A DNA stretch of 64,000 bases. Origin: a virus (taxonomy: Duplodnaviria > Caudoviricetes). Below the pieces are notes generated by a model. It searched no databases and was not told the DNA's origin. It saw only the letters and a list, made by a program, of their open reading frames with translations. This document shows, piece after piece, positions 4,390 through 54,660 of the stretch. Every line of letters starts with the position of its first letter. Position 1 is the stretch's first letter. Both the position numbers and the translations under genes were made by a program. The stretch is taken from the IMG/VR virus record IMGVR_UViG_2643221568_000002, positions 1-64,000 of that record; one strand, written 5' to 3'.

Positions 4390-5303
4390 GACAACGCCTC
4401 CGGAAACTGAAGGTATTCATCACCGTAGATTTTCCGGCCGGCAGCCTTCTTGCCGACCCGAACCATGGTGACGGTGCCGAGGTTGGTGACCGAAAACGGG
4501 TTGTCGTCGCTGCGCAGATCCTGAGAAGGATAAGCATCTATGGGCTTCGCAAGGGTAACCTTGCGCGCGACGTCGTGAGGGACCCATTCTCCCCATTGCT
4601 TGAACAGGAGCGGTACCGGCTTGCGCGGGTGTTGGCGCAGCGTGCATGCGTTCTTGATGTCGTCGAGCCATTGCGGGTGCATCGGTCTGGCATCGGTACC
4701 GCTCTCTCCGCCGACGATGACCCAATCGATATGATCCAGCCATTCCGCCCTCAGCCGGACTCGGCCAAGCAAAGGCTCGAGGCTCAATCCGATCCACGGC
4801 AGACCGAGACGCTTCTTCAGATCGATGAGGCGAGGTATTTCGCGATCGGCCTCACGCTGGTTGGTGATCGAGAACATCAGGCCGATATGTTTCGGCCAAG
4901 CGTCCAGCCAGTCGGGAGGCACCATCTTCGGGACGTTCGCGCCGCGCTTCGTCAGCAGGATGACCTTTACCCACCGTGCCTCCTTCGCTTCCGCGAACAG
5001 CTCGGAGCGCCAATCGTCGGAGACCTCGTTATCGAAGGTGTCCGACATCGATTGCATGAACACGCGGATGGAGCGGCCATGCTCGCTGAAGAACGATGTC
5101 GCAGATTTACGGTTCAACATGCGCAGCAGCGAGACTGCGCCCTTGATCTTCCGGCGAGGGGCGTTTGGTCCCCATTCGCCGGTGCCGCGGAAAGCGTTCA
5201 AGGTCTCGGCATAACAATGGTCGCAGCCGGGGGAGACCTTCGTGCAGCCCCACCAGAAGTTCACCGTGGCGTCGCACCACTCAATCGCGGAGGTTTCAGC
5301 CAT
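4386..5303 (-). CDS. DUF5131 / Gp37Gp68 family protein
   Basis: IEWCDATVNFWWGCTKVSPGCDHCYA; SMSD; SLEPLL; WVIVGGESG; FKQWG. Confidence 0.92.
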   Translation of the reverse strand: MAETSAIEWCDATVNFWWGCTKVSPGCDHCYAETLNAFRGTGEWGPNAPRRKIKGAVSLLRMLNRKSATSFFSEHGRSIRVFMQSMSDTFDNEVSDDWRSELFAEAKEARWVKVILLTKRGANVPKMVPPDWLDAWPKHIGLMFSITNQREADREIPRLIDLKKRLGLPWIGLSLEPLLGRVRLRAEWLDHIDWVIVGGESGTDARPMHPQWLDDIKNACTLRQHPRKPVPLLFKQWGEWVPHDVARKVTLAKPIDAYPSQDLRSDDNPFSVTNLGTVTMVRVGKKAAGRKIYGDEYLQFPEALS

Positions 5304-5901
5304 GGGACTGCCCCAAGATCTCTTCGTAACGATTGATGAACGCTATCGCTGCGCTCTCGGGCGACCATGGGATGATTTCGAAGCAGTATGGATCGACGCC
5401 TTTGCCAATGCTCCAGTCTGCGCCGTTCCAGGGCAGCAGATCGCGGCGCTCAGTCGCGAGCATGCGAACGTCCGCTTTCTTGATCTCCAGTGGGTCGGTG
5501 ATCGTGACGCCGAAACGCTTCAAGATGGCGGCTTCGCAGCGTTTCTCGATCGCCTTGTAATCTGGGATGAGCGATTTCAGCGGCGCGGTCATGTCGCCGC
5601 ACACGGCTTCGCCCGCCTCGTGCATCAACGCTTCAAGAGCGAGGGGCGGCGGCACGACGTGGCTCATCCGAACACAGTGTTCTGCTACGGAATAGAACAC
5701 CCTCCGCTTGAGCCGCTTGCTATAGCACTGGCCGGCGCAACGTCCTTCGAAGGCCAAGCCGTAAGCGATGTCTTCGATCGTGATGGAGCTGCTCTCCGGA
5801 TCTTGGAAATCGAAGTATGTGCCGGATCCGAGAAGGATGGTCGGGCCGATAGCTTTGCGAATGGTGCTTTCGCGGAGCTTCTGGATTTCCTTCTCAGACA
5901 T
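5296..5901 (-). CDS. HD-domain phosphohydrolase (YfdR/YfbR-like)
   Basis: IEDIA...YSVAEHC...LMHEAGEA.CGD..PLK...AD..MLATERRDL; HD reads HE. Confidence 0.85.
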   Translation of the reverse strand: MSEKEIQKLRESTIRKAIGPTILLGSGTYFDFQDPESSSITIEDIAYGLAFEGRCAGQCYSKRLKRRVFYSVAEHCVRMSHVVPPPLALEALMHEAGEAVCGDMTAPLKSLIPDYKAIEKRCEAAILKRFGVTITDPLEIKKADVRMLATERRDLLPWNGADWSIGKGVDPYCFEIIPWSPESAAIAFINRYEEILGQSHG

Positions 5902-6829
5902 TTTCGGGCTCCATAGCCTTCACCGGCATCTGCCCGAGTTTGCGGATGAGAGCAGTCGCGGTTTTCAGATCAAGCGCTGCCACCGCCTCTGCTGCGTCCC
6001 TTTGCAGTTTTTTTACGGCGGTATCGAACCTCGATGAACCTCGTTGATGCACCTTTCGGCCTACCGCTCTGGGCGAGGTCGAACGAAAAAGCTCGGAGAA
6101 TGATACGTGGGTAAAGTCGCGTTGACCCGAACCGTAGACAAACGTCCACATGCCGTTGATGCCACCCCAGACGCGCCCGCGTCTGAGGTAACCCTTGCTG
6201 TCTCTCGTCAGCAGCACGTCCCCGTGCTGAATAGGTAGCTTATCGGCGTCGAAGGTCTGATAATGGTTGAGTTCGGAGAGCGCCGGCCAACCGGTCTCAT
6301 CGCGCTTGAAGCGATGTTCCCCTCTTTTGCGATAGTACTGATCATCCCACCTGTCGTTGAAGTAAGCGAGAGGGTCGGGGTTGGCGCTCTTGATCTCTGT
6401 GTCTTCGGAAAAACCGCGATCAGCCAGGTGCGTCCGGATATCTCGAAGCGTGTACTCAAAGCGCTTTCCGATGAGATAAGGCATTTTCTCCCGACGAGAA
6501 AAGTCGTAGGCACCACCATTGGGGTTTTCAAAAACGACGTTCTGGAAAAACTCGATCTTGCATCCGGTGGGGTAGGTTTCAGCTTTAAATTCAAGCTCGC
6601 GCCACTTCCCGTATCGGTGGCTTGGCCCGAGAATTGAAAAACGCCGCTCTATTTCAGGGTCTCTCCCGACCTCGAAACCGATTCCTTTAAGGACGCCCAT
6701 TACTCGGTTAAAGGTTTCCCAATCGGGAGCGTCGGAGACGCTGTAGCTGCGCTTCCTCGGCCTGCCGCTACGGCAAAACAGTATCAATGATGTGTCGTGG
6801 ATTTTGAAACTACGTTCTGTGTCAGACAC
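5894..6829 (-). CDS. Phage hypothetical protein
   Basis: 311-aa ORF in operon. Confidence 0.7.
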   Translation of the reverse strand: MSDTERSFKIHDTSLILFCRSGRPRKRSYSVSDAPDWETFNRVMGVLKGIGFEVGRDPEIERRFSILGPSHRYGKWRELEFKAETYPTGCKIEFFQNVVFENPNGGAYDFSRREKMPYLIGKRFEYTLRDIRTHLADRGFSEDTEIKSANPDPLAYFNDRWDDQYYRKRGEHRFKRDETGWPALSELNHYQTFDADKLPIQHGDVLLTRDSKGYLRRGRVWGGINGMWTFVYGSGQRDFTHVSFSELFRSTSPRAVGRKVHQRGSSRFDTAVKKLQRDAAEAVAALDLKTATALIRKLGQMPVKAMEPENV

Positions 6830-6835
6830 GATCGC

Positions 6836-7252
6836 TCATCCTCGGAAAAGAGAAAAGGGAAGGGGCGCTGGCAGCACCCACAGGTGATACATGTCAGCCG
6901 CGTCGATGATTTCTGCCTGTGGTGGGTAGACCTCGACCGCCGTAGCATCGGGCCCTGCCAGCTCGTCCTTTATGCGCTGCATCTCGGTCCACGTCGGGCG
7001 GACGCCGGAGAGCGCCGTGATGCCGAAGTGCCGGGTGCCGTCGGGCAAAGTCCGATCGAGGACGCTGAAAACACCGTTGCGGTGCGCCGTGGTGAACTCT
7101 GCAGTCCAGCCGTGCGGTGAGACGCTGCCGCGTGGGAACGTGATCGTTTCCCATGCCTTCCACTTGCCGGATCTGCGCGCGATCGCTTCATCGCGCAGGA
7201 TCAGGCGACGGTTGCGGCGGGGCAGGGTGTCGAAGTGAGCTTGTGCCTTCAT
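6836..7252 (-). CDS. Conserved phage protein (PTWxEMQRIK family)
   Basis: RPTWTEMQRIKDELAG..ATAVEVYPP...NMYHLW-like motif. Confidence 0.8.
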   Translation of the reverse strand: MKAQAHFDTLPRRNRRLILRDEAIARRSGKWKAWETITFPRGSVSPHGWTAEFTTAHRNGVFSVLDRTLPDGTRHFGITALSGVRPTWTEMQRIKDELAGPDATAVEVYPPQAEIIDAADMYHLWVLPAPLPFSLFRG

Positions 7253-7947
7253 GCCGCCACCTGGTCGATGTTGGCGTTGATGGTGACGAAGGTGTAGGCG
7301 ATGACCCACGGGTTCGTTTTCCATGGATGCTTGACGTTGATGACATCCCACAACCATTCGAAAACGTCACGGGGGGCATGCGAGGCAAGACCGAAATACT
7401 GATCGCCCTGATCCACGACGTAGCGCCCGGAGGCGCGGAGCTTCTGCAAACCTTCCGATATGGCGTCGTCGGCGCTGATGTCTTGAAGCCGTTCGATGCG
7501 AACGTCTTTCACTTCCAACGTCATGCGTGAGTGCTTCCGGAACATAAAACGTCCCATGCGGCGGTGCCACGCCGGCGTATGCGGGTCAGCGTTGTGCATG
7601 CCCTTGCGGAAGACCAAGGGTGTCTCGAAAACGACCTCCGCCGAGTCCTCGACGAAGTGCCATTTCTGCTTTCCAAGAGGCGTCTTGGCGTCGCCCTTCG
7701 GTTCCCAATGGCCGTAGCGATAGTGCGTCTCGCAGACGTAGAAGCGGTCGCCCTTGGTGATGCGGGGCGGCGCTGCGATCGGGCCGTCAGGCTTGTGGTC
7801 GAAGGTAAACTCCCACGTCGAGTGATCCAGACGCCGGACCTTCGTCAGGTTCTCACTGTGAGGCAGCAAGCGCCGTGTCTGGGTCTTGCGGCCAGCCAGG
7901 AGGGCAGCGACCATCGAGCGGCTGAAAAGAATAGGGCGGTTATTCAT
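7249..7947 (-). CDS. ASCH-like phage protein
   Basis: RPILFS..MV.ALLAGRKTQTRR; VRIERLQDIS..DA..EG; NPWV. Confidence 0.85.
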   Translation of the reverse strand: MNNRPILFSRSMVAALLAGRKTQTRRLLPHSENLTKVRRLDHSTWEFTFDHKPDGPIAAPPRITKGDRFYVCETHYRYGHWEPKGDAKTPLGKQKWHFVEDSAEVVFETPLVFRKGMHNADPHTPAWHRRMGRFMFRKHSRMTLEVKDVRIERLQDISADDAISEGLQKLRASGRYVVDQGDQYFGLASHAPRDVFEWLWDVINVKHPWKTNPWVIAYTFVTINANIDQVAA

Positions 7948-8365
7948 AGATCCGCACCAACTTATCTTCGGGCTTCCCGCCGCTGGCGATATGCTCGTCG
8001 AACCACGCTTTCAGCGTTTCGGGCTGTAACGGCTGTTCATCGTCCGGGTCGAGAAAGACGTCCGGGGTATCGATGAAGTCCTGATAGGTGGGAGCACACT
8101 GAATGCAGAGGGGAGTGATAGACGCGTGATACTGATCGCCCGGGAAGATAGGCGCAGCGCACTGCTCGCAAAGTATCGCATCCTCTTTCTGGCACTCTTC
8201 CACCACGTTCTGGAACGCGGTCTGCGCTTCGAGCCATTCCTGCTGTGTTGGCTCGAGCAGTTTGTAGCGCTGCTGGTCGAGCAGCTCGACGCGCTCATTG
8301 GCAGCTGCCCAGCGCTGTTTGAGGTCAGCCACGGTGGGCTCCGTATCGGTCATATCAATCTCCAT
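7940..8365 (-). CDS. Phage zinc-finger protein
   Basis: CEQC...CIQC. Confidence 0.65.
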   Translation of the reverse strand: MEIDMTDTEPTVADLKQRWAAANERVELLDQQRYKLLEPTQQEWLEAQTAFQNVVEECQKEDAILCEQCAAPIFPGDQYHASITPLCIQCAPTYQDFIDTPDVFLDPDDEQPLQPETLKAWFDEHIASGGKPEDKLVRIYE

Positions 8366-8415
8366 TGGACCTGTTCGGGAAGCCCCGCCCCGAAAGGCGG
8401 AGAAACCAGAGCGGG

Positions 8416-8586
8416 TCAGCGCTTGCCGAGCCAGAGTGAAAGTTTGAGAAGCCCCAGCAGGCAGATGCAGATCAGGAAGTCGATGATCGGTCCCGTCAGC
8501 ATCATGAGCAGGACGAGCGCGATCGCCGCGGCGACCACGATTGCTTCCGCCCGCTGCCGCACCCAGGCTTTCGCCTGGGCGATCAA
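8416..8586 (-). CDS. Small membrane protein (56 aa)
   Basis: TTGA overlap with TAXI stop; MIAQAKAWVRQRAEAIVVAAAIALVLLMMLTGPIIDFLICICLLGLLKLSLWLGKR. Confidence 0.6.
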   Translation of the reverse strand: MIAQAKAWVRQRAEAIVVAAAIALVLLMMLTGPIIDFLICICLLGLLKLSLWLGKR

Positions 8587-9464
8587 TTGCCGTACTCCGC
8601 CTTGATGCCTTGCGCAGCGCGCGCCGCTGCCTGCACGAAGCCGGGCAAAGCCTTGGCGTCGATGCGGTCAGTGTTCACGAAGACAGCGGCGGGCCATGAA
8701 ATCGTCTTGCGAGACGCAAACCAGCCGGACTGCAGCGACTTAGGGTAGGTGCCCTTCGGGATGTCGCGATACTCATAGAGCGGGTCGCCCTTGATATCGG
8801 TCGCGTCGTCGAAGTCGCGATCGTTTGCGCCAGCGAGAACTACGGTATCCCCATAGGTCTGGTCAGCTTCGGTGACGGTGCCGTTTCGCAGGCCAGCCGG
8901 GACGAGCATGCAAGTCGCTTCGCCGCTCGACACCGCCGACAGGGCGAGAACGCCACCCTCATTGCGGACCGGCACCTTCCCGTAGGAATCGTCCTCGGCA
9001 ATGATGTTCTGCCAGATCAGCCAGGCGCCACTGCCGGGTTCACCAATCGCGATCGAGTATTTGGCCGGATCGTCGGGCAGGTCGGACAGATCATCGACGC
9101 CGGACTTCTTGCCGCACAGCACGTGCAGATACTCTCGGTGAAGCGTCGCGACCTGCCGCAGCTTCTTGACCTTGGCCGGGGATGAGCGCCCGACATAGAC
9201 CGGTCCGTCCGGCTGGCCGATCATGGCGTCGCAGGCCTCCGGGTTGGCCGGGTCGAGGTCGAGGACGCGCTCGAGGTTGTCGATCGTGCCTTCGGTCGGC
9301 ACGTTGACCACGCTCACGCTTTTCCCGGCCATCTTCGCGATGGCATCGCCAGCGGCGAAGTAAACACCGCTCTCTGATCCGGTGCAAAGGCGGATCGGTG
9401 CCGCCTTGGCCTCGGAGCTGATCGCGATAACGGCTATTGCCGCCATTAAAAACAATGGCTTCAT
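8583..9464 (-). CDS. TAXI-family TRAP solute-binding protein homolog
   Basis: Signal peptide; TGSESGVYFAAG; TEGTIDNL; LHREYLHV; IGEPGSGA. Confidence 0.8.
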   Translation of the reverse strand: MKPLFLMAAIAVIAISSEAKAAPIRLCTGSESGVYFAAGDAIAKMAGKSVSVVNVPTEGTIDNLERVLDLDPANPEACDAMIGQPDGPVYVGRSSPAKVKKLRQVATLHREYLHVLCGKKSGVDDLSDLPDDPAKYSIAIGEPGSGAWLIWQNIIAEDDSYGKVPVRNEGGVLALSAVSSGEATCMLVPAGLRNGTVTEADQTYGDTVVLAGANDRDFDDATDIKGDPLYEYRDIPKGTYPKSLQSGWFASRKTISWPAAVFVNTDRIDAKALPGFVQAAARAAQGIKAEYGN

Positions 9465-11003: not shown

Positions 11004-11242
11004 GCCGCTGCCCTCTTGGGCAGGACTTCCACATACTCGATGTCGCCGGGATGGACGCGCACTGTTTCAGCGCTCCATCCGGTTTCGCGCACCCAGAGGT
11101 CGCAGGGCAGGTCCGCTGCATCGGCAGGCACGTGTTCCTGCGCCCGAAGCTTGCGGCTGTGCCGATCAATGATGACCGTCCCCGGCTCAATTGCCGTGCG
11201 GCGGGCGTGCAAGACCAGCACAGGGAGATTGTTGTTTCTCAT
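11000..11242 (-). CDS. Phage hypothetical protein
   Basis: Coupled ORF (ATGA overlaps). Confidence 0.6.
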   Translation of the reverse strand: MRNNNLPVLVLHARRTAIEPGTVIIDRHSRKLRAQEHVPADAADLPCDLWVRETGWSAETVRVHPGDIEYVEVLPKRAAA

Positions 11243-11544
11243 GCCGCGGCTCCGTAGATCGCCTGCATCATCGCGATGCGGTTCTGCAGGAGCAGATCGG
11301 CGATCATGTCGGCGTTATAGACCGCCTTCGGTGCGCGCTCCTGCCAGAGGATCAGGTTGGCCTCGGGGTCGCCTTCCGCCGCCGCGTACAAGAGTTCGTT
11401 GGATTCGGTGATGTGGGTGTCGTTCGCGCAATTCGTGGTGCGTCCGTCATCGCAGATCATGGCGCCGCCGCAGGAAGAGCATGCGTCAGGATAAATGTTG
11501 AGTTGTTCCACGCTGCCGCAGTTTGTGCAGGTCCATCTTCTCAT
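11239..11544 (-). CDS. Zinc-ribbon protein
   Basis: CTNCG...CSSCGG. Confidence 0.7.
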   Translation of the reverse strand: MRRWTCTNCGSVEQLNIYPDACSSCGGAMICDDGRTTNCANDTHITESNELLYAAAEGDPEANLILWQERAPKAVYNADMIADLLLQNRIAMMQAIYGAAA

Positions 11545-11553: not shown

Positions 11554-11682
11554 TCAACGGTTCAGGGTGCTATGGCACGTCGCGAGCGACGCAGCCTTGG
11601 TGCAACGGGCGTACCCGTCGTCAGTGATGCTGAAAAACAGGACGAGCGAAATCGTCCCCGCTACGGCAAGCAGGCTCCGCAT
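11554..11682 (-). CDS. Small membrane peptide (42 aa), first gene of leftward operon
   Basis: GGAG SD; MRSLLAVAGTISLVLFFSITDDGYARCTKAASLATCHSTLNR. Confidence 0.55.
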   Translation of the reverse strand: MRSLLAVAGTISLVLFFSITDDGYARCTKAASLATCHSTLNR

Positions 11683-11737: not shown

Positions 11738-11788
11738 ACAATATCCTCTATTGAGGACAAGTCAACAGGAGTATTCTCTATAGAGGAT
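11738..11788 (-). promoter_or_regulatory. pL-like promoter with two operators (OL)
   Basis: Near-palindromes ATCCTCTATTGAGGAC (11743-11758) and ATTCTCTATAGAGGAT (11773-11788) flank a minus-strand TTGACT; TATTGT -10. Confidence 0.8.
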
Positions 11789-11793: not shown

Positions 11794-12636
11794 TCACTGA
11801 GCAGATAACGCCATGACGCGTCTATGCGCCCTGACAAGGATGTCCGGGTCGAAGGGATTCGAGGCGTCGGCCTGTATCGTTCTCACTTCACGGTCCAGCG
11901 CGGTGTGGGCCGAGCTGCCGGTCGCATATTCAGGGTGCGCCTCGAGGAAGTCGGGCACGGTGATGTTGCGCCAGTAAGCCTCGTCCGTGCATTCCCGTTC
12001 CGGGTTCGCGCCGGCAACCTCTCCCGTGCATCGGTCCACCACGACCTTCTTTTCGGTCGCGGGTGAGGGTGTGGTGAGCTTGAACTTTTCCATCGCAAAA
12101 TCGGTGAACACGAACATGTCGTTCGGTGGGGTTTCCAGCACATAGGTGAGCGCGTCAGGGTCAACGCCCATTGCAATGAAGTGCCGCAACACCTTCGCTG
12201 ATAGCGCCTGCGCGATCTGCGCGTCCTTCGGTGAGTGCCCGTCGTCCGACCATCTGAACTGATGTGAGCCGAGCTGCGACGAGGTGGGTACGTGGCGCTT
12301 CGTTCCGCCGATGAAAGCGAAGAGGCAGGCCGATAGGCACTGTCCTTTTGGGGCCACCATTGTCTCGATGTGAGCGTTGCGCACCGTCTCGCCCATGCCG
12401 ATCGCTGCCGAGACGCTTCCGCCCGGCGAGGAGAGCACCACCATCGAGATTTCAGGAAGTGAAGCGATCATGCCTGCCAGGACCAATTCATCCTGTGGAC
12501 GAATGTCGCCGGTGCCAAGGATATACTGCTTCTCGTCGCCGATCTTGCCGACGGAAAAATCCATGGAAAATCCGGGCTGTGCTGTCACTAAAAAGGAGAA
12601 AAGAGCGCATGTAGTAAGGTATGGTGCATTAATCAT
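11794..12636 (-). CDS. Exported ClpP/crotonase-like (COG3904-like) protein with C-terminal scaffold-like segment
   Basis: Signal-like N-terminus; LSSPGGSV, CLSAC..AFIGG..R, LGSHQF; C-terminal 50 aa 50% identical to scaffold. Confidence 0.75.
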   Translation of the reverse strand: MINAPYLTTCALFSFLVTAQPGFSMDFSVGKIGDEKQYILGTGDIRPQDELVLAGMIASLPEISMVVLSSPGGSVSAAIGMGETVRNAHIETMVAPKGQCLSACLFAFIGGTKRHVPTSSQLGSHQFRWSDDGHSPKDAQIAQALSAKVLRHFIAMGVDPDALTYVLETPPNDMFVFTDFAMEKFKLTTPSPATEKKVVVDRCTGEVAGANPERECTDEAYWRNITVPDFLEAHPEYATGSSAHTALDREVRTIQADASNPFDPDILVRAHRRVMALSAQ

Positions 12637-13090: not shown

Positions 13091-13099
13091 GCGGGGAAT

Positions 13100-13171
13100 A
13101 TCCTCTATTTCGGATATTTTCGCACGTCCTTCATAGCGAGCGGTTGACGTGTCCTCTATCGAGGATATATT
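13100..13171 (+). promoter_or_regulatory. pR-like promoter with operators (OR)
   Basis: ATCCTCTATTTCGGAT (13100-13115), GTCCTCTATCGAGGAT (13151-13166); TTGACG 13144 and TATATT 13166. Confidence 0.8.
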
Positions 13172-18934: not shown

Positions 18935-19554
18935 GCCGCCGTACCATGCCCTATCACCGCCGATACCACGGCGACGCGCTGCAAGGATATCGCAAGCTCA
19001 CACTGGAGCAGCGTGGCGCGTACACGACGATCCTCGACCTGATCTACGATGAAGGTGGCCCAATCGATCGCAATGAGCGCTGGCTCGCCGGTGAGCTGAA
19101 TTGCTCTCTCCGGAAGGCTAAGGTTCTCCTCGACGAGTTGATCCAGTTGCGCAAAATCTGCGTCACCGTTGGTGGAAAACTGAGCAATCATCGTGCCGAA
19201 AGTGAGATAGAAAATTCGCTGAAAATCTCGCGAAAACGCGCTGAAAACGGATCGAAACGGAAAGATAATTCAAACGATAAACCGAAATCGTCCAATAAAT
19301 TCAATGATCCAGTCAAGCAATTGCTGAACAATTGCGCTGTAATACCAGTACCAGAGCCATATAAGAATAATAATAGCTCTTCGGAGTATGAGGATAGGAG
19401 GGCAAGGAGGGAACAGGTTCTAGCCGTTCCCGATGAGCCTCCACCAATCACAGCATCGCATCGATTGATCAGCAGCCTGGACGGAAGAACCGGATCGGGT
19501 GCAGCCGCAGCTCAAGCCGCTCGTCGAGCGAGGTCGGGAGGGCGTTTGTGGTGA
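18931..19554 (+). CDS. YdaU/DUF1376-family putative replication protein
   Basis: YHRRYHGDAL...LTLEQRGAY..ILDLIY. Confidence 0.8.
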   Translation: MSRRTMPYHRRYHGDALQGYRKLTLEQRGAYTTILDLIYDEGGPIDRNERWLAGELNCSLRKAKVLLDELIQLRKICVTVGGKLSNHRAESEIENSLKISRKRAENGSKRKDNSNDKPKSSNKFNDPVKQLLNNCAVIPVPEPYKNNNSSSEYEDRRARREQVLAVPDEPPPITASHRLISSLDGRTGSGAAAAQAARRARSGGRLW

Positions 19555-20369
19555 GCAAGAAGCCATCGAAGTCGGATGAGGTTTTGTCACCCCTAAAGCG
19601 GAAATCCGGCAATCGTGGAGTGTCGGCAAAGGCTGGTGGCAAGGTTGCAAATCCGAAGGTGCGGAAAGCAGGGGTTGAGAAGGATGCCGAGCCCAAGCCG
19701 GTGAAGTACGACAAGCGGTTCATCGGTCTGGCCAGGACGATGTTCCTCGCCAAGGTCTCCGACGAGGAGATCGCCGGCATCATCGGCATCGACGTCGAGG
19801 AGCTGGAGTGGTGGAAGGAAGAGCACCCCGAGTTCGGCAACGCGTTCCGGCCAGATCCGCGCAATTACGGCGGCAGGCCCACGGTCTGGGAAGATCGCAA
19901 CATCACGATCGCTCAGTCGCTCGCCAGCCTCGGCGCCACGGACCTCGAGATCGCGCAGGCCTTCGAGGTCAGCATCCGCACGATCCACCGTTGGAAGCTG
20001 GACTATCCGGAGTTCCGCGAAGCGCTCGAGCTGGGCAAGGATGCAGCCGACAAGCGTGTCGAGACAAGCCTCTTCCAGCGTGCCACCGGCTATTCGTTCG
20101 ACAGCGAGAAGATCGTCGTCATCGAGGGCGAGGCACAGCGCGTCGAGATCATCGAGCATGTCCCGCCCGACACCAAGGCGGCTATGTGGTGGCTGCAGAA
20201 CCGGAAGCCCGACGCGTGGCGCGCCGTCCAGCACATCAAGCACGATGTCGAGAAGGATAGTCCGCTTGGATCGTTCCTGAAGAAGATAGGCGGCAGCACA
20301 TTCATGCCCGTGGAGGAGGATGCCACCACGCCCAACGCGTTCTCGCCCGTCGAAGAAGATGAGGCGTAA
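19548..20369 (+). CDS. terS: Terminase small subunit
   Basis: GGRPT, tandem HTH, KRVETSLFQRATGY, PPDTKAAMWWLQNR; upstream of TerL. Confidence 0.85.
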   Translation: MVSKKPSKSDEVLSPLKRKSGNRGVSAKAGGKVANPKVRKAGVEKDAEPKPVKYDKRFIGLARTMFLAKVSDEEIAGIIGIDVEELEWWKEEHPEFGNAFRPDPRNYGGRPTVWEDRNITIAQSLASLGATDLEIAQAFEVSIRTIHRWKLDYPEFREALELGKDAADKRVETSLFQRATGYSFDSEKIVVIEGEAQRVEIIEHVPPDTKAAMWWLQNRKPDAWRAVQHIKHDVEKDSPLGSFLKKIGGSTFMPVEEDATTPNAFSPVEEDEA

Positions 20370-21916
20370 TGTACGAGCATCTTGCCGGTCTTACTGAAGA
20401 GCAGTTCCTCGAGAACCTGAAAGACCCGAACTGGCGCATCCGCAACCTCTATTACATCCTCGACAAGTTTCACCAGACCGTCGTGTTCAAGCCGAATGAG
20501 GCTCAGGACAAGTTCTTGAAGCGCATCTGGCACAGGAACATCGTGCCGAAGGCCCGCCAGCGCGGCTTCTCAACCGTCATCCAGCTCCTGATCCTCGACG
20601 CTTGCCTGTTCAATCCAAACCAGCGTGCGGCAATTATTGCCCAGGATCAGTTCACCGCTGGCAAGATCATGCGCAACAAGATCGAGTTTGCGTATGAGCG
20701 GCTGCCAGACTTCATCCGCCGTGACGTGAGCATCGTGACTGACAACGTCGCTGAGAAGATCTTCAGCAACGGTTCGTCAATACAGGTGTCCACGTCTGCG
20801 CGTGGTGACACGCTCAATTGGCTCCACGTCTCAGAGTTCGGCATCATCTGCTTCGAGTCGCCGCAGAAGGCCGAGAAGATCGTAACCGGCGCGCTCGCGG
20901 CAGCCGGGCAGGGCATCACCTTCATCGAAAGCACGGCGAAAGGCAGGGACGGCGCATACTACAAGATGGTCATGGAGGCGAAAGCCAATGCCGATTCCGG
21001 CAAACGCCTGTCTCGCCTCCAATACAGGCTGCACTTCGCGTCGTGGTGGGATGCTGACGAGTATGAGGTTGATCCGACCGGCATCACGATCTCTGCGAAG
21101 GATGAAAAGTATTTCGACGAGCTGGAGCGCGAGATTGGCCGCGAGATATCGCCGCGCAAGCGCGCTTGGTATGTCGCGACCAGGCTGAACGACTATTCCG
21201 ACGAAGACGAAATGATGTGGCAGGAGTACCCATCAACCGTCGAAGAGGCATTCAAGGTTTCCACCGCCGGCGTGATCCTCGCCAAGCAGCTCACCAGAGC
21301 CCGAAGCGACGGGCGCATCACTCGCGTTCCGTGGCGGCCAAACCTCCCGGTCAACACGTTCTGGGACTTGGGCGTGGATGACGATATCGCCATCTGGTTC
21401 CACCAGTCCGTCGGCATGATGGACCACTGGATCAATTACTTCGAATGCAGCAGCGAGCCCTACAGCTACGTCATCGCCGAGATGCAGAAGCACGGTTACG
21501 TGTGGGGGCATCACTTCCTGCCGCACGACGGAGACCAGCGTCGGCCAGGCGCTATCATCATCGAGACGCCGCGGCAGATGCTCGAGGGCCTCGGCCTCAA
21601 GAACGTCCACATCGTTCCCCGAACCACTGACCTGATGGCGATCGGCATGCCCGCGCTGAAGGATGACATGGTCAACTATGTCTTCGACGAGCAGAACTGC
21701 GCCAAGGGCATCCTTCATCTCGATAACTACCGGAAGTCTTGGAACACCAACATGGGCGTGTGGTCCGAGACGCCGGCAAAGAACGGCCACCAGCACGCCG
21801 CCGATGCGCTGCGCCAGAAGGCACAATACCGCGACGAGGTCGCGCGCCTGTGCGGCACTGTTACCGCTTCCTCCTCCTCATCGCGCCGTCGGGCGCGTGA
21901 CCCCATGACCCTCTGA
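20369..21916 (+). CDS. terL: Terminase large subunit
   Basis: KARQRGFST, LHVSEFG, IESTA, WDLG, HAADALR. Confidence 0.95.
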   Translation: MYEHLAGLTEEQFLENLKDPNWRIRNLYYILDKFHQTVVFKPNEAQDKFLKRIWHRNIVPKARQRGFSTVIQLLILDACLFNPNQRAAIIAQDQFTAGKIMRNKIEFAYERLPDFIRRDVSIVTDNVAEKIFSNGSSIQVSTSARGDTLNWLHVSEFGIICFESPQKAEKIVTGALAAAGQGITFIESTAKGRDGAYYKMVMEAKANADSGKRLSRLQYRLHFASWWDADEYEVDPTGITISAKDEKYFDELEREIGREISPRKRAWYVATRLNDYSDEDEMMWQEYPSTVEEAFKVSTAGVILAKQLTRARSDGRITRVPWRPNLPVNTFWDLGVDDDIAIWFHQSVGMMDHWINYFECSSEPYSYVIAEMQKHGYVWGHHFLPHDGDQRRPGAIIIETPRQMLEGLGLKNVHIVPRTTDLMAIGMPALKDDMVNYVFDEQNCAKGILHLDNYRKSWNTNMGVWSETPAKNGHQHAADALRQKAQYRDEVARLCGTVTASSSSSRRRARDPMTL

Positions 21917-21927
21917 AAGGCATCGAC

Positions 21928-22350
21928 ATGGCAGTAGATTTGGACCTCAATAAGCGTCTCTGGACTTTCCGGAAAGACGGCCTTATGGCTATCGGTACTT
22001 GGATACGGATGGATGATCGATTCCGCCCGTGTATGGTTCTTATTCCAGCGGACAGGGAATATGACGACAGGCTGACGCCGTGCGTGGTCACTATGGACCG
22101 AGCATGGATCTGGTCAGAGGAAGTCGGCGACCCTGCCCAAGCCGCACACGCGGCATTCCAGTTCGCAAACACCCTTGGCCTCTCCACAGACCGTCGCACC
22201 GTGATCCGGCTGGCAATGTTCATTGCCGACCACTTGGGCGACCTCCTGTCTATCCCCCCTTACACGCCAGATGATCAGCAGACCGTGGCCGAAGTCACCA
22301 TGCGTGACCCCACCTCCGGGCGCACGATCGAAGCCGAAATAAGGGAATAG
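21928..22350 (+). CDS. Conserved protein between TerL and portal
   Basis: 140-aa ORF at a conserved position. Confidence 0.7.
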   Translation: MAVDLDLNKRLWTFRKDGLMAIGTWIRMDDRFRPCMVLIPADREYDDRLTPCVVTMDRAWIWSEEVGDPAQAAHAAFQFANTLGLSTDRRTVIRLAMFIADHLGDLLSIPPYTPDDQQTVAEVTMRDPTSGRTIEAEIRE

Positions 22351-22351
22351 A

Positions 22352-24571
22352 ATGTTTTCACTCGACGCTGACGATGGATCGGTGCGGAAGAAGCGGTACG
22401 AATCGCCAATCCCGGCAGACACGCCAGCGTCGAAAAGGCCACAGACGGGCAACGCGCTCGACAATGGCAAGAATACCCAGCTGCACAAGCGGCTTCTCGG
22501 CTTCTATACCCGAGAGCTGGACCGCCAGGCTGAAAACCGCCGCGACATGGCGATCGATGCGGACTTCTACGATAACATCCAGTGGACAGAGGAGCAGGCA
22601 GCGGTTCTTCAAGAGCGCGGCCAGTCGCCTCTCGTATTCAACGTCACCGCCACCACCGTCGATTGGGTGATCGGTACCGAAAAGCGCGCGCGCACCGACT
22701 TCAAGGTGCTGCCTCGCCGTAAAGAAGACGGCAAGCCTGCGCAGCGCAAATCCGAGCTGCTGAAGTATTTGGGCGACGTGAACCGCAGTGGGTTCCACGT
22801 CAGCCGTGGATTCGAGGACGCTGCCAAGGTCGGCGTTGGCTGGATGGAGGACGGGTACCAAGGCGATGACGAGGGTGAGCCACTGTTCTCTCGCTACGAA
22901 TCGTGGCGCAACATGCTCTGGGACAGCGCGGCAACTGAGTACGACCTGTCAGACGGTCGTTACGTCATGCGCTCCAAGTGGCTCGATCTCGACGTCGCCC
23001 AAGCAATGTTCCCTAAGCGCAAGTCGCTTTTGACGCGCAGCGTAGACGACGCTGACAATTTCGCGATGATCGACGGCTATGGCGATGAAGCCATGGACGG
23101 CCCAGAATTGGAAAATCAGGGCAGGGGCGATGGCACCTTTATTTCCGACCGAGTGACAGGGTATCAGAGACACCGCGTCAGAGTGATCGAGTGCTGGTTC
23201 AAAATGCCCGTGCAAACCGAAAAGATTTCGGGTGGCACGTTCGCCGGCGACATCTACGACGATATGTCGCCCGGACATCTCTCTGCAATCGAGGAAGGCG
23301 ACGGCGAAATCGTCAAGAAGGCCACGATGCGCATGTATGTTGCGCTGTTCACCACAGCGGGCATGCTCTGGCTTTCGCCGTCTATATACCGCCATAACCG
23401 CTACCCCTTCACGCCGATCTGGAACAAGCGCCGCGATCGCGATGGCATGCCTTACGGCCTGGTGCGCAACATCCGCGACATCCAGAGCGACATCAACAAG
23501 CGCGCATCGAAGGCCCTGCATATCCTCTCGACGAACAAGGTCGTGATGGACAAGGGCGCAGTCGATGACATCGACGAACTTCGGGAAGAGATCGCCCAGC
23601 CCGATGCGATTATCGAGGTGAACGTTGGCAAAAGCTTCAAGTTCGACGTCGATCGAGAACTGAGCCAGTGGCACCTCGAGATGATGTCTCGCGACATCCA
23701 GATGGTGCAGCAGGTCGGCGGTGTGACCGACGAGAACCTTGGGCGCAGCACCAACGCCGTGTCGGGTATCGCCATTCAGGCCCGTCAGGAGCAGGGCGCG
23801 CTTGCAACGGCCAAACTGTTCGATAACCACCGGTTTGCCCAACAGGTGCGCGGCGAGAAGATCCTCGCCAACATCGAGCAGTTCATGTCGGAAGAGAAAC
23901 AGTTCCGCATCACCAACATGCGCGGCAATCCGGAATACGTGACCGTCAACGATGGTCTCCCCGAGAACAACATCGTCCGCACCAAGGCAGACTACATCAT
24001 CGACGAACAGGACTGGCGCGCAACGGTCCGTCAGGCCCAGGTCGCCGAGCTGCTCGACCTCCTCGGCAAGCTTGCGCCGGTCAACCCCCAAATCGCGATC
24101 GTGCTCCTCGATCTGGTCGTCGAGGCGATGGACATCCCGCAGCGCGAGGAAATCGTGAAGCGCATCCGTCAGGTCACGAACATGAAGGACCCTGATGCCG
24201 AAGATCAGCCGCCGACACCGGAAGAGGAGGCACAGGCGCAGGCTACAGCACAGCAACAGAAGCTCGCGCTTGAAACAGCAATGGCGCAGCTGCGCAAGAT
24301 CCAGTCTGAGGCTTCACGCAACGAAGCTCACGCCTCCGACATCAAGGCGAAGACGGTTGCGGCCAACGTTGGCGCGCAGAAGTCGGCGCTCGAGGCAGCC
24401 AGCGCTGTGATCGTTGCGCCAGGCATTGCCGATATCGGCGACGTCATCTTGCACGAATCCGGTTTCGTCTCTCGCTCTGAGGGCGAGAAGGACATGCAGC
24501 AGCAGCAAGCAGCTCAACAACCACCACAACAGCAACAGCAGGACGCCATGGCTATCGGCCTCGGCGCATAA
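22352..24571 (+). CDS. Portal protein (P22-like)
   Basis: DFYDNIQW, PYGLVRNIRDIQSDINKRAS, NAVSGIAIQARQEQG; 739 aa. Confidence 0.92.
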   Translation: MFSLDADDGSVRKKRYESPIPADTPASKRPQTGNALDNGKNTQLHKRLLGFYTRELDRQAENRRDMAIDADFYDNIQWTEEQAAVLQERGQSPLVFNVTATTVDWVIGTEKRARTDFKVLPRRKEDGKPAQRKSELLKYLGDVNRSGFHVSRGFEDAAKVGVGWMEDGYQGDDEGEPLFSRYESWRNMLWDSAATEYDLSDGRYVMRSKWLDLDVAQAMFPKRKSLLTRSVDDADNFAMIDGYGDEAMDGPELENQGRGDGTFISDRVTGYQRHRVRVIECWFKMPVQTEKISGGTFAGDIYDDMSPGHLSAIEEGDGEIVKKATMRMYVALFTTAGMLWLSPSIYRHNRYPFTPIWNKRRDRDGMPYGLVRNIRDIQSDINKRASKALHILSTNKVVMDKGAVDDIDELREEIAQPDAIIEVNVGKSFKFDVDRELSQWHLEMMSRDIQMVQQVGGVTDENLGRSTNAVSGIAIQARQEQGALATAKLFDNHRFAQQVRGEKILANIEQFMSEEKQFRITNMRGNPEYVTVNDGLPENNIVRTKADYIIDEQDWRATVRQAQVAELLDLLGKLAPVNPQIAIVLLDLVVEAMDIPQREEIVKRIRQVTNMKDPDAEDQPPTPEEEAQAQATAQQQKLALETAMAQLRKIQSEASRNEAHASDIKAKTVAANVGAQKSALEAASAVIVAPGIADIGDVILHESGFVSRSEGEKDMQQQQAAQQPPQQQQQDAMAIGLGA

Positions 24572-24582
24572 GGAGCTTTCCC

Positions 24583-25551
24583 ATGGTTGGCAAACCAAAT
24601 GCCGCAGAACTGGACATGCTTACCGACGAAGAGCGCGAAGGCTTGCTCGACGAAGACACCATCGACGAGGGCCTTGAAGAAGAGGGCGACGGAGACGGAG
24701 ACGGCGAAGGTGATGCCAACACGGATGCTGGGAACGGTACCGACAAGGAGCAGGACAAAGCCGGCGACGGTGATGGTGAAGGCGAAGGCGATGGCGATGG
24801 TGACGATAACACCGACGCCGCCAAGGCCGCAGCAGATGCCGCAGCGGCGGCTGAAGCGGCAGCGGCAGCCGCCGCAGCTGCATCGCAGGATGCCGAGCAG
24901 AAGAACGTAGCACAGGAACCGCAGGAGCGTGCACCCTCTTGGCGCATCGATCCAGCGGTACCGGACAAGATTACAGAGCTGGACAAGCAGCGTGACGAGA
25001 TTGTCGCGAAGTTCGACGACGGCGAAATGACTGGCGCCGAGATGCGGGCCCAGCTGAAGCCAATCGAAACGGAGATCCGGCAGCTCGAGACGAAAGTCAT
25101 GGCGGCCGACATCGCCAAGGCGAACGCGATCGACCAATACCGCGACGTCACCATCCCGAATTTCATGTCTGCGCATACCGAGTATCAGCCTGGGACGATC
25201 TTGCACACGATGCTCGACGCAGAGGTTCGCCGCCTGCAGCAGACCGCCACAAACCCGCTGAGCCCGAAGATCCTCGAGCAGGCGCACACGAATCTCTCGT
25301 CGCAGGTCGAGAAAGCCTACGGCGTGAAGAAGGCGGCTCCTAAACAGGACACGCCGAAACCAAACGCAAGCGGAACAGGTCGTCAGGTGCCGCCGACGCT
25401 GGGCACCGTGCCGGCAGCGGATGCCAATGACGCAGACGACGGCGGCGAGTTCGCCTGGCTGGACCGTCTCGCAAACTCTGATGTCGAGAAATACGAAACC
25501 GAACTCGCGAAACTCTCAGATGAGAAACGCGAGCGATACATGGCTGAATAG
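24583..25551 (+). CDS. Putative scaffolding protein
   Basis: Acidic low-complexity N-terminus, coiled coil, VPPTLG.VPAA; follows portal. Confidence 0.8.
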   Translation: MVGKPNAAELDMLTDEEREGLLDEDTIDEGLEEEGDGDGDGEGDANTDAGNGTDKEQDKAGDGDGEGEGDGDGDDNTDAAKAAADAAAAAEAAAAAAAAASQDAEQKNVAQEPQERAPSWRIDPAVPDKITELDKQRDEIVAKFDDGEMTGAEMRAQLKPIETEIRQLETKVMAADIAKANAIDQYRDVTIPNFMSAHTEYQPGTILHTMLDAEVRRLQQTATNPLSPKILEQAHTNLSSQVEKAYGVKKAAPKQDTPKPNASGTGRQVPPTLGTVPAADANDADDGGEFAWLDRLANSDVEKYETELAKLSDEKRERYMAE

Positions 25552-25559
25552 GAGCCTGA

Positions 25560-25748
25560 ATGTTGCGACTTGCCGTGAAGCTGGGGGACGCGGTGCGGAT
25601 CGAAGGTTTTGGCCTGATCCACGTCGAAGAGAAGTCGGGGCGCAGCGTGCGCCTCGGCTTCGAAACGGATCAAGGTCCGATCACGATTATCAAGCGGGAA
25701 GACACTGAGGCCGCACTCACGCGGCGTCAGCAGCACATGGTTTACTAG
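25560..25748 (+). CDS. CsrA/RsmA-fold RNA-binding protein homolog
   Basis: AGGAG SD; MLRL..KLGDAVRI...GRSVRLG...IKRED aligns with CsrA MLILTRRVGETLMI...GNQVRIG...HREE. Confidence 0.75.
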   Translation: MLRLAVKLGDAVRIEGFGLIHVEEKSGRSVRLGFETDQGPITIIKREDTEAALTRRQQHMVY

Positions 25749-26154: not shown

Positions 26155-26466
26155 GCTCTCCCCTCTGTTCACATCATTTGCGGCTTTGCAGGCGGCGACG
26201 GCAACCAGCCGACGTCGAAGCAGGCGCTTCTGCGGCTCCCTCAGTGGTCGGAGGAGCCCGCCACCGGCGTGCCGACGACGAACGGCGCAGCTGATAACGG
26301 CGCGATGAAGCCGATCCTCCGCATCACCAACACCGTGGACATCTACCTGAGTGTCGGAAAAGCGCCGAATCCGGCGATAAGCCCGCGTTTCGCACTTCGT
26401 GCGGTCGATGCCCCGCATGACATTTACGTCGAGCCCGGCGACAAGGCGGCTTGGGTGGCCGCGTAA
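26152..26466 (+). CDS. Small putative virion/tail-associated protein
   Basis: 104 aa; coupled (TAATG) to next gene. Confidence 0.7.
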   Translation: MALPSVHIICGFAGGDGNQPTSKQALLRLPQWSEEPATGVPTTNGAADNGAMKPILRITNTVDIYLSVGKAPNPAISPRFALRAVDAPHDIYVEPGDKAAWVAA

Positions 26467-28730: not shown

Positions 28731-28898
28731 ACCTCACTAATCTCACCTAGTTTGCCTCGCTCACCTTGAGACTTGCGGGGTTTACTTTTGCTAACCAGTA
28801 TCGAAATCAGGACGCATAAAGTATTATTTCCGGCCCAATAGACTAGACAGGAACTGACCAATCTAGCAGTGTAGCTCCCGATTATATAGCTGGGGACT

Positions 28899-29942
28899 TT
28901 GTCGGTGGGGGAAACTCAAAAGAAGAGGTTGGATTGGGTGGATGCTGCTAAGGGCATATCCATCCTCCTTGTAGCGCTCTACCACATAGGTCTCTATTTA
29001 GAACATGCGGCGTTCAGCGCACGCACCATCGTGGCCATTAATACGCTTCTTCTTCCAATACGCATGCCGGTATTTTTTGTTGCATCGGGGTTTTTCGCAC
29101 GATCAGCAATCGATAAGGACTGGAGCTTCGTGGTGAAGCATAGGATAGCCTTCTACTTCTATCTTTTCCTTATCTGGTCTGTAATACGATTTGCTTTCTT
29201 TGGAGTTGTCCCTAACCCGCGGAACCTCAGTGAAGGAACCGACATCTTATGGTTGGTCCAATCGTTCTTCAGCCCAAGCACAGGAGCATGGTTTCTATGG
29301 GCATTAGGGTTCTTTTTTCTGATTGCAAAACTGCTGCGCACGATAGACCATCGATATGTTCTTGTCGCGGCCGCTCTTGTGTCCGTTTTGGGTTACTCCG
29401 GGACATTGCATATCCCTTTCACTCATGAGAATTTGTTCAAGTACTTCTTCTTCTTTTATGGCGCATGCTTTTACCGAGAAACGTTTGAACGCATGCAGAA
29501 AAATCCTTCTTTGTTAATAATTTTGGGCGGCTGCTTGTTTGTCGTTCTCAGTCTTTTGGCTTATAAATCGCAGTTGTCTTGGATAGATGGTCCTTCCCTC
29601 TTTCTAGCTGCCGTCGCAGCCGTCTTTGCGGTCTCATCCATTTGCGTCCTCGCACAAGGTACCTCTATAAGCCGAGCTTTCGCTTTCCTTGGCACCCACA
29701 CGCTGCCAATCTATGTCATCCACGTGATGGTCGTGGTGGCGTGCATTAGCATAGCTGTAGCTGTTGAGTGGCCACGTTCAGAGATAGCGACGATAACCCT
29801 CTGCTGTTTAACTCTGTTGATCGCAATAGGCACCCCTCTCATGCTCGAGCGACTGATGAACTTCATCGGAATATCGAGCGTGCTGTTTAGGCTTCCTTCA
29901 AGCCGAAAAATGGCGGCGTCCAGCCAGATGCGCCAAGCGTGA
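28899..29942 (+). CDS. Acyltransferase-3 family (polysaccharide O-acyltransferase) moron
   Basis: RLDWVDAAKGISILLVALYH, RMPVFFVASG, WFL, LGTHTLPIYVIH; multi-TM; AT-rich. Confidence 0.9.
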   Translation: MSVGETQKKRLDWVDAAKGISILLVALYHIGLYLEHAAFSARTIVAINTLLLPIRMPVFFVASGFFARSAIDKDWSFVVKHRIAFYFYLFLIWSVIRFAFFGVVPNPRNLSEGTDILWLVQSFFSPSTGAWFLWALGFFFLIAKLLRTIDHRYVLVAAALVSVLGYSGTLHIPFTHENLFKYFFFFYGACFYRETFERMQKNPSLLIILGGCLFVVLSLLAYKSQLSWIDGPSLFLAAVAAVFAVSSICVLAQGTSISRAFAFLGTHTLPIYVIHVMVVVACISIAVAVEWPRSEIATITLCCLTLLIAIGTPLMLERLMNFIGISSVLFRLPSSRKMAASSQMRQA

Positions 29943-30116
29943 GGTAACTGCTTTTCCTACGTCAAGGCTCGATTCGGTGGCCTTTTTTTATACCCGCCCC
30001 ATGGATCGCTGGTTGGCAACAGATCGGGGGCGCTCGAGCGACCACAAGCGGGCAGAACGGAATGTCACGTCCTTCCATTTCAACGTAACGCAATCTATAA
30101 CCGGAGCATCACGCCC

Positions 30117-30154
30117 GCGCATGAGTGCGGCTTCTCGATAGGAGCCCACGCATG
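30117..30154 (+). promoter_or_regulatory. Late-leader switch 2 (darB)
   Basis: GCGCATGAGTGC 30117-30128; alternative stem covers AGGAG and ATG 30152. Confidence 0.85.
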
Positions 30155-47980: not shown

Positions 47981-48016
47981 AGTGCTGCCTTCTGGTGAGG
48001 GTCAGCGCTCATGCGC
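47978..48016 (-). promoter_or_regulatory. Late-leader switch 3 (ejection proteins)
   Basis: Minus-strand GCGCATGAGCGC 48016-48005 before ATG 47980. Confidence 0.8.
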
Positions 48017-48026
48017 AATTTGCTAT

Positions 48027-48718: not shown

Positions 48719-48720
48719 CG

Positions 48721-50454: not shown

Positions 50455-50485
50455 AACTAGCCTCCTTGCTCACGCGTGCGAAGCG

Positions 50486-53683: not shown

Positions 53684-53686
53684 AGA

Positions 53687-54098: not shown

Positions 54099-54112
54099 GA
54101 CAAGCTCCTTTG

Positions 54113-54136
54113 AAAAAGGGGGCTCGCGGCCCCCTC
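54113..54136 (-). terminator. Intrinsic terminator
   Basis: GAGGGGGCCGCGAGCCCCCUUUUU. Confidence 0.75.
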
Positions 54137-54157
54137 ATTGATGCGCCGTGACGGCTG

Positions 54158-54619: not shown

Positions 54620-54660
54620 CTCGAAAGTCCTTCAGGTGGAAGGGTCGCTAAGACCGATGG

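Follow-up and report, generated by a model that had tools for sequence, protein, structure and literature searches.

A module shared with a scaffold-like protein behind an exported-type ClpP-fold protein in a prophage immunity region: a possible superinfection exclusion factor

Why should a prophage carry, beside its repressor gene, a copy of part of its own apparent scaffold protein behind what looks like an export signal? The question is raised by gene X, which encodes a protein of 280 amino acids (aa) in a 64,000-nucleotide stretch of viral DNA (positions 1 to 64,000 of IMG/VR record IMGVR_UViG_2643221568_000002, a provirus of 76,332 bases; hereafter the window). The window contains a temperate podophage prophage in Agrobacterium, Bcep22/Roslyckyvirus-like and integrated beside a tRNA-Ser gene (59170-59259), with gene X as a moron in its immunity region. 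A leader resembling a signal peptide opens the product, followed by a ClpP-fold domain of the COG3904 type and, at the C-terminus, a module related to part of the protein encoded directly after the portal gene (Table 1). The reading that we favour, by analogy with known systems and at a probability of roughly 40%, is that X may be a periplasmic exclusion factor expressed in lysogens, the module of which would be directed at a virion protein that related phages eject, while the N-terminal domain would act on that target.

The resemblance between the two proteins was reported in a first-pass annotation made from the letters of this DNA, as a gapless alignment with 25 identities in 50 residues. 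Its coordinates are exact, with 11824-11973 on the minus strand encoding residues 222-271 of X and 25138-25287 on the plus strand encoding residues 186-235 of the 322-aa open reading frame (ORF) behind the portal gene. BLASTP comparison of the two proteins returned this single gapless segment (25/50 identities, 35/50 positives, 60.1 bits, E value of 6e-15 for a single comparison); the tail of X (residues 217-276) matched phrog_8246, the PHROGs family of the 322-aa protein, with an E value of 5.1e-8; and hhalign, run with the exported modules described below against 64 scaffold-type proteins, gave a probability of 99.8% and an E value of 1e-28 over 60 columns. Judged from these comparisons, the X tail and the scaffold module are truly homologous, beyond chance. 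In the AlphaFold2 (AF2) model of X the module consists of three helices (residues 218-233, 242-257 and 265-279) with a predicted local distance difference test score (pLDDT) of 96-98. The exported and scaffold sets have the same residue at 12 of 58 columns, including the polar positions H234, Y237, D248 and Q255. Neither Pfam nor NCBIfam has a model of the module, and a search of the ESM Atlas with the X tail gave no usable match.

The first-pass annotation had proposed looking for recurrence of the fusion, and it does recur. With the 85-aa tail of X as query, phmmer found 81 matches among 1.84 billion cluster representatives (E<=1e-3); these were sorted by reading the sequences into about 68 scaffold-type proteins, nine exported proteins, one standalone module of 88 aa and three spurious repeat proteins. 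A word-indexed search with the tail alone had found just the four close clusters, the rest being revealed by the exhaustive search. Scaffold-type proteins have an acidic N-terminus, are 240-360 aa long and carry the module in the middle; the exported proteins, the representatives of which are less than 50% identical, carry it at or near the C-terminus. Five of the latter have the ClpP-like domain of the X type (P0001, P0080, P0087, P0089 and P0090) and three a longer COG3904 subtype (P0081, P0142 and P0149). In the ninth, P0082, the place of the ClpP-like domain is taken by Pfam Rap1a (PF18602; residues 27-105, 43.4 bits against a cutoff of 27.7, E value 4.9e-11). There is thus a well-conserved domain, as yet without a name, common to about 68 scaffold-type and nine exported protein clusters.

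Selection on the fusion was measured using four DNA copies of X, those of the window and of the loci L006, L007 and L009. Between the window and L006 or L007, which are about 81% identical to it at the protein level, the ratio of non-synonymous to synonymous substitution rates (dN/dS) is 0.10 in the module and 0.10-0.11 both in the ClpP-like domain and in the whole tail, at an overall dS of about 0.9-1.3 (about 0.9-1.0 in the module). Given these ratios and the nine exported representatives, with their three types of N-terminal domain, the fusion is neither unique nor drifting, and its tail is subject to purifying selection; neither uniqueness nor neutral evolution, which the first-pass annotation had named as grounds for dropping its idea, is borne out. 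The comparison of the window with L009 (8001-8255) is of another kind: dS is 0.03 in the module and 0.41 in the ClpP-like domain, a contrast that suggests a recent recombinational exchange of the tail, with a breakpoint between the two domains.

The AF2 model of X, built on 87 sequences, has a mean pLDDT of 89.1. The ClpP-like domain named in the first-pass annotation is borne out by a Foldseek search of the PDB with this model, in which ClpP was the top match (E value 2.5e-7, template modelling score by target 0.62-0.67, 13-19% identity), and by a profile of the COG3904-type family, which matched ClpP 3q7h_A with an E value of 1e-8. In this second alignment the serine and histidine of the family coincide with the AAS and IHQ stretches of ClpP, which we take to be the carriers of its catalytic residues. 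Residues G43, G72, G73, C100, S102, C104, G111 and H125 are invariant across the 87 COG3904-type sequences. The third position of the triad, placed by eye against ClpP, is Asp173 in X (within PPNDMFVF) and Asp or Glu in most relatives. Pfam CLP_protease is matched by 21 of the 87 family members at E<=1e-3. On these sequence features, X is possibly an active Ser-His hydrolase. Its nearest named homologue comes from a metagenome-assembled genome of Agrobacterium cavarae; most members of the COG3904-type family cover just 45-60% of X, and the distant matches are named 'COG3904 family protein' in UniRef. No NCBIfam model matched X. Between the ClpP-fold domain and the module lies a two-cysteine beta-hairpin, present ahead of the module in seven of the nine exported representatives and modelled in X with a beta-bridge between V200 and V207.

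Several features suggest that X is exported by the Sec pathway to the periplasm. As the first-pass annotation had noticed, the protein begins with a hydrophobic leader; this has a 14-residue core, YLTTCALFSFLVTA, followed by QPGFS and a cleavage context of small residues. The leader has a pLDDT below 50 in the AF2 model, being unstructured as expected for a leader, and its codons are constrained (dN/dS 0.18-0.39). Strongly hydrophobic signal-like leaders are found in all nine exported representatives. In the orthologue of Agrobacterium phage Atu_ph08, gp71, an in-frame methionine upstream of the annotated start (L002 ~7597-7626; ~57597-57626 of the record) adds MKCVTLALACVLG..., a canonical leader ending in ASA; the annotated start of this gene (AUZ95488) is therefore probably too far downstream and belongs at the upstream codon. 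The conservation of the cysteine pairs fits an oxidising compartment. Given these export features, any target of the module would have to be met in the periplasm.

The 322-aa protein from the family of which the module comes has the position and predicted build of a scaffold. The gene order portal, phrog_8246 protein, CsrA-like protein and major capsid protein (MCP) is found in Bcep22 and in a related provirus that is 97% complete (G003); in the window and Atu_ph08, the MCP block is on the other strand from the phrog_8246 gene. The protein is acidic and alanine-rich. In its AF2 model a disordered acidic N-terminus (residues 30-110, low pLDDT) is followed by a helical domain (125-246, pLDDT 97-98), a flexible linker and helices at 291-321 (pLDDT 93-96) that form a helix-turn-helix-like C-terminal end, an architecture that we take to resemble that of P22 gp8. 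The module sits inside the helical domain; the family has four conserved blocks, of which the module forms one. Searches with the 322-aa protein found no relevant sequence match in the PDB and nothing at E<=1e-3 with Foldseek, and VIA-align of its model gave nothing beyond generic helical hairpins and coiled coils (Z<=8.9). On the sequence comparisons above, this family is the donor of the X module.

Gene X lies 150 bases downstream of the repressor gene, on the same strand, and upstream of a left operator (OL) and promoter (PL). An 18-nucleotide (nt) repeat is present in four copies in the region, two at OL and two at the right operator (OR), which flank the repressor-X pair; the PL-like promoter is directed left from the OL pair and its counterpart, PR-like, right from the OR pair. 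The cro-position ORF had no family match in PHROGs, and a scan of the interval between repressor and X found neither a promoter-like nor a terminator-like site. The first-pass annotation had likened this position to that of lambda rexAB, cargo between cI and OL that is transcribed with the repressor, and the repressor gene, operator pair and PL-like promoter all lie where that comparison places them. A terminator-like hairpin is found at 11639-11662 (minus strand), about 80 bases past the PL-like promoter and ahead of the first ORF of the left operon (11239-11544); it might terminate the repressor-X transcript or serve as a target of antitermination.

Relatives show the fusion both in this slot and elsewhere. 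X itself is adjacent to the repressor in a complete provirus (G001), a viral fragment (G002) and a 2.68-Mb metagenome contig (L009), and in Atu_ph08 and G005 the same slot holds a ClpP-like domain with another short two-cysteine tail and no module. In G003, which has the collinear head-tail order of Bcep22, the fusion P0090 is encoded on the opposite strand, between the last gene of the tail block and the giant gene; this being another moron slot, the association arose or moved independently. The 88-aa standalone module belongs to a viral fragment (G004; L014 7475-7741), between the portal gene (5130-7463) and the scaffold gene (7767-8714). No clear ribosome-binding site is visible ahead of it, and, at about 64% identity by count to the module of the adjacent scaffold, it appears to be a local tandem duplication. 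This copy, together with the confident helices, the low dN/dS and the columns common to both sets, marks the module as a unit that stands by itself and is under selection. All four viral records with an exported fusion (G000, G001, G002 and G003) also encode the scaffold family, and among 50,697 records of isolated phages the module occurs solely in scaffold genes (six records). Pattern scans for contexts of the distant fusions found one locus in genome contigs, which was spurious, one close relative in metagenome contigs and two close relatives in viral contigs; they gave none for P0149 and just a tail-less relative for P0089.

How such a protein might act is suggested by phage P22. The P22 scaffold is required for loading ejection proteins into procapsids (PMC8402733), and the P22 protein SieA excludes relatives via the ejection proteins gp16 and gp20 (PMC10883804); where the ejection proteins bind is described as still open (PMC8402733). 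By analogy with this loading and this exclusion, the module could be the part by which the scaffold holds a protein destined for later ejection. In the mechanism that we favour, lysogens would transcribe X together with the repressor, much as happens with lambda rexAB, and Sec would carry the product to the periplasm. Within the scaffold, the module would bind a virion protein in need of loading into procapsids; the 444-aa gp74-like protein and the giant DarB-like protein of the window are examples of ejection or internal proteins that could fill this role. In the periplasm, the exported module would grasp that protein on its ejection by a related phage. The ClpP-like domain, or the Rap1a-type hydrolase-inhibitor domain of the one relative, would thereby be held against the ejected protein and would cleave or block it, and the outcome would be superinfection exclusion, through a block to DNA delivery or to penetration of the envelope.

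The 444-aa protein has, in a low-complexity stretch, an island reading RKVLVDxxTGKxV, nearly the same words as the hairpin ahead of the exported module. Orthologues of this protein were located at L001 29103-30413, L026 1486-2730, L027 1492-2721, L028 1198-2427 and L029 1201-2409; the island is kept in six of six alphaproteobacterial orthologues and absent from both of the others (PEp14 and Itty13). A regular expression derived from the hairpin, applied to the 676,566 six-frame residues of all loci examined, matched only X, the 444-aa protein and the giant protein, with a pattern that was defined after the fact and a motif that is short. We infer from these matches that the 444-aa protein is a candidate ligand of the module. 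The giant protein begins at its N-terminus with cell-wall hydrolase domains (Hydrolase_2 and VanY). Rap1a-type proteins are periplasmic inhibitors of cell-wall amidase effectors, and the Rap1a fusion fits the exclusion model because this giant ejected-type protein starts with such domains. One hairpin and module behind two COG3904 subtypes and Rap1a form a pattern of 'targeting domain plus warhead'. A giant polyvalent protein is already known for this phage group (PMC6630229).

These observations can be combined into a more specific proposal, which we hold tentatively and think rather unlikely to be correct: the module would be the cargo-recognition domain with which Bcep22-like scaffolds load ejection and internal proteins into procapsids, re-used by temperate phages of the group as a periplasmic address label. 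Joined to a ClpP-like protease or a Rap1a-type hydrolase inhibitor, it would deliver such warheads onto the ejectosome of superinfecting relatives, with the RKVLVDxxTGKxV island of the gp74-like protein as its ligand and the two-cysteine hairpin as a built-in mimic of that ligand; the fusions would then be a modular family of exclusion proteins made from copied assembly machinery.

A number of points weigh against X being an exclusion factor of this sort. The hairpin motif could be a common beta-hairpin word. The label of scaffold is given to the 322-aa protein from its position, composition and predicted architecture, and no solved scaffold matched it. The context is readable for three of the nine exported representatives, the other six being on short contigs, and the proposed co-transcription of X with the repressor in lysogens is argued from gene order. 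The leader of X lacks a basic residue in its n-region, having Tyr6 where the orthologues P0001 and L009 have Arg6. As for activity, the third residue of the ClpP triad is not conserved, being Asp173 in X and Lys in Atu_ph08, and X scores below threshold against Pfam CLP_protease (17.4 bits against a cutoff of 20.2, E value 0.0042), for which reason we file it as ClpP-fold, COG3904-type, and not as CLP_protease. PADLOC returned no match for X. The full-length type is rare, with four clusters of one to three sequences, and the module differs between the window and L009 by four non-synonymous and one synonymous changes, too few for a ratio and no signal of constraint. Finally, the module of X is 50% identical to that of the resident scaffold and 54-59% to foreign ones. 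In a tree of the modules (85 rows, 58 columns), which has little resolution (1 of 80 branches starred), the X module is not sister to that of the resident scaffold. Co-evolution with a target cannot be shown from a module that is not closest to its resident scaffold and from such a tree, nor does the tree decide between one and several origins of the exported modules.

The strongest rival explanation, and one that we consider a real possibility while doubting it, is that the module is a mere self-association or stabilising domain, borrowed from DNA that was at hand, and that the periplasmic role of X has nothing to do with phage parts; envelope or receptor remodelling, processing of host proteins and other forms of lysogenic conversion are possible roles. 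On this view the central domain of the scaffold would serve its oligomerisation, and the exported proteins would use the borrowed copy for dimerisation. The module is indeed a compact helical unit, with generic helical hairpins and coiled coils as its only structural neighbours, and the tail-less orthologues in the same slot of Atu_ph08 and G005 imply that the ClpP-like domain works without it. COG3904 proteins are widespread as chromosomal periplasmic proteins, and the co-occurrence of the fusion with the scaffold family would be explained equally well if the scaffold gene were simply the source of the DNA. However, one and the same module stands behind three unrelated kinds of periplasmic N-terminal domain, among them Rap1a, and Rap1a-type proteins dimerise on their own. 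Polar positions are retained in scaffold and exported sets alike, and the exported modules are old, at about 50% identity to the resident scaffolds, yet tightly constrained. The first-pass annotation had named both a targeting module and a co-opted oligomerisation domain, and these remain the right options.

An improbable third reading is that the portal-adjacent protein is itself in the virion and is ejected, so that the module of X pairs in the periplasm with the homologous module of the incoming protein and poisons whatever assembly that protein forms. The module may associate with itself; like many ejection proteins, the family is all-helical and has disordered regions, and its assignment as a scaffold comes from position. 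Several neighbours of Bcep22 gp52, the phrog_8246 member, are labelled virion-associated in the Bcep22 record, but gp52 is not, and the gene order from portal to MCP and the helix-turn-helix-like C-terminus fit a scaffold.

The first-pass annotation had also considered a decoy acting in the cytoplasm on capsid or portal assembly, for which an internal start would be needed, and this part of its proposal has fared badly. A cytoplasmic form starting at Met25 would disturb the capsid assembly of superinfecting relatives. Met25 is conserved and was chosen as the start by gene callers in two clusters (P0003 and P0004), and the leader of X has the atypical n-region described above. However, the internal ATG has no purine-rich ribosome-binding site ahead of it, while the first ATG of X is preceded by GAGG; the leader shows codon constraint, nine of nine exported representatives have signal-like leaders, which are strong in all of the distant fusions, the Atu_ph08 leader is canonical, and the conserved cysteine pairs suggest disulfides. 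A decoy made in the lysogen would, moreover, also hurt the assembly of its own prophage upon induction. We therefore regard this explanation as very improbable. That the tail is a functionless leftover of illegitimate recombination, as the rarity of full-length X might suggest, is hardly credible, being contradicted by a dN/dS of about 0.10 at a dS of about 1 and by recurrence in nine representatives, as well as by the confidently predicted fold.

Comparison with known systems places X in the COG3904 ClpP-fold group, with a tail that belongs to the phrog_8246 module. With Atu_ph08 gp71 and the COG3904 family it has in common the leader, the ClpP-fold domain (41.8% identity over residues 8-200) and the repressor-adjacent slot; it differs in its tail, gp71 having a short two-cysteine tail and no scaffold-like module. 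The gp71 protein is called 'Clp protease' in PMC6630229 and 'putative periplasmic protein' in its record, and no COG3904 member with a studied function was found in the literature searched. With the phrog_8246 proteins (Bcep22 gp52 and Atu_ph08 ASV44776) X shares the three-helix module of 55-60 residues. Those are acidic cytoplasmic proteins encoded after the portal, with the module in the centre; in X the module is alone, C-terminal and behind a signal-like leader and ClpP-like domain. P22 SieA (PMC10883804) and X as proposed would both be envelope proteins made in lysogens that stop the DNA delivery of relatives via ejection proteins, a likeness of function, not of family, with the X side of it read from sequence.

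In head proteases of the lambda gpC/Nu3 type, which are joined to a scaffold by fusion or nesting, a scaffold segment comes after a ClpP/S49-like protease domain, and the genes belong to the head module and act inside procapsids. The domain order is like that of X, but the immunity-region location and signal-like leader of X set it apart, and it lacks the defining features of such proteins. A role for X as a head-maturation protease was considered and rejected: the NCBIfam model Clp_rel_HeadMat did not match X, and the relative P0081 reached just 19.1 bits against a cutoff of 120. T4 Sp and TP-J34 Ltp, exported proteins of resident phages, work on parts that an incoming phage has ejected. Neither these nor rexAB have any relation to X in sequence or fold, and their mechanisms involve no copy of an assembly protein. 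Literature on Bcep22-type scaffolds, COG3904, Atu_ph08 and superinfection exclusion by prophages yielded no description of such sharing of a domain. X thus appears to be built in an undescribed way; in its proposed role it would resemble exclusion proteins of the SieA, Sp or Ltp type, as a member of none of those families.

The remainder of the window supports its assignment to this phage group. Gene content and order agree with those of Agrobacterium phage Atu_ph08 (Roslyckyvirus), the Bcep22 group being a more distant match; the shared features are the P22-type portal, the portal-adjacent phrog_8246 protein, the CsrA-like gene, SU10-type adaptors and the 5101-aa DarB-like polyvalent protein. 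The head genes are divided between strands, with the block from terminase to portal and scaffold on the plus strand (19548-25748) and that from MCP to tail on the minus strand (45486-55825), as is also the case in Atu_ph08; the two blocks are collinear in Bcep22 and G003. A segment of about 30 kb is inverted within the phage group. An assembly artefact or a recent inversion in the window was dropped as an explanation of the divided head module, the layout being identical in Atu_ph08. Between the scaffold and CsrA-like genes and the giant gene, at 26451-29942 on the plus strand, are genes for an Acyl_transf_3 acyltransferase and for a FAD_oxidored-like protein of 759 aa, the C-terminus of which matches Golvesin weakly. 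GC content drops to 0.487 at 29001-30000. No counterpart of these two genes was found in G003, and they are likely to be cargo for lysogenic conversion. A second tyrosine integrase, at 59340-60491 on the minus strand, lies outside the prophage, just past the tRNA-Ser gene, and could be part of another element integrated at the same tRNA.

Table 1. Positions in the window of gene X, its parts and the other features discussed.
Feature	Position	Strand	Basis or remark
OL-like operator pair (11740-11757 and 11770-11787) with PL-like promoter	11738-11787	-	18-nt repeat; promoter-like TTGACT-16-TATTGT
Gene X, 280-aa exported-type ClpP-fold (COG3904-type) protein with scaffold-like C-terminal module	11794-12636	-	ORF, homologues, AF2 model
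Three-helix module, residues 218-279 of X	11800-11985	-	BLASTP, hhalign, AF2, dN/dS; contains 11824-11973
Linker with two-cysteine beta-hairpin, residues 196-217 of X (KKVVVDRCTGEVA...C), framed by Cys203 and Cys216	11986-12051	-	7/9 exported representatives; AF2
ClpP-fold domain, residues 26-185 of X	12082-12561	-	Foldseek, family profile, conservation
His125 of X	12262-12264	-	
Ser102 of X	12331-12333	-	flanked by Cys100 and Cys104
Signal-like leader, residues 1-24 of X	12565-12636	-	hydrophobic core, codon constraint
cI-like helix-turn-helix repressor, 100 aa	12788-13090	-	PHROGs transcriptional repressor/regulator families, E 1e-7
OR-like operator pair (13097-13114 and 13148-13165) with PR-like promoter	13097-13171	+	18-nt repeat and promoter-like site
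cro-position gene, 78 aa	13181-13417	+	faces PR-like promoter; 'cro' from position only
P22-type portal	22352-24571	+	Pfam portal, E 2e-191
Scaffold-like protein, 322 aa, directly after portal	24583-25551	+	phrog_8246, E 3.5e-79
Module in scaffold-like protein, residues 186-235	25138-25287	+	BLASTP, hhalign
CsrA-like 62-aa ORF behind scaffold gene	25560-25748	+	Pfam E 0.0078, sub-threshold; slot of Bcep22 annotated CsrA-like gp54
Giant DarB-like polyvalent protein, single 5101-aa ORF	30125-45430	+	Hydrolase_2, VanY, InPase, Eco57I-type methylase, SNF2/helicase, LPD39
Virion structural protein, 444 aa, Bcep22 gp74 family	45486-46820	-	phrog_9667, E 3e-77
RKVLVDxxTGKxV island in low-complexity stretch of 444-aa protein	~45849-45887	-	orthologue comparison
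Integrase	57691-59013		

Two results hold whatever the mechanism: a domain is common to scaffold-type and exported protein clusters, and the start of Atu_ph08 gp71 probably lies upstream of its annotated position. If X does act in exclusion, it would represent a new route by which prophage exclusion systems arise, through the copying and export of a binding domain of the phage's own assembly machinery, such that the exported domain recognises its usual partner upon ejection by a rival. The part of a podophage scaffold that recognises internal or ejected proteins would be indicated as well, and the COG3904 family would gain a first functional handle.

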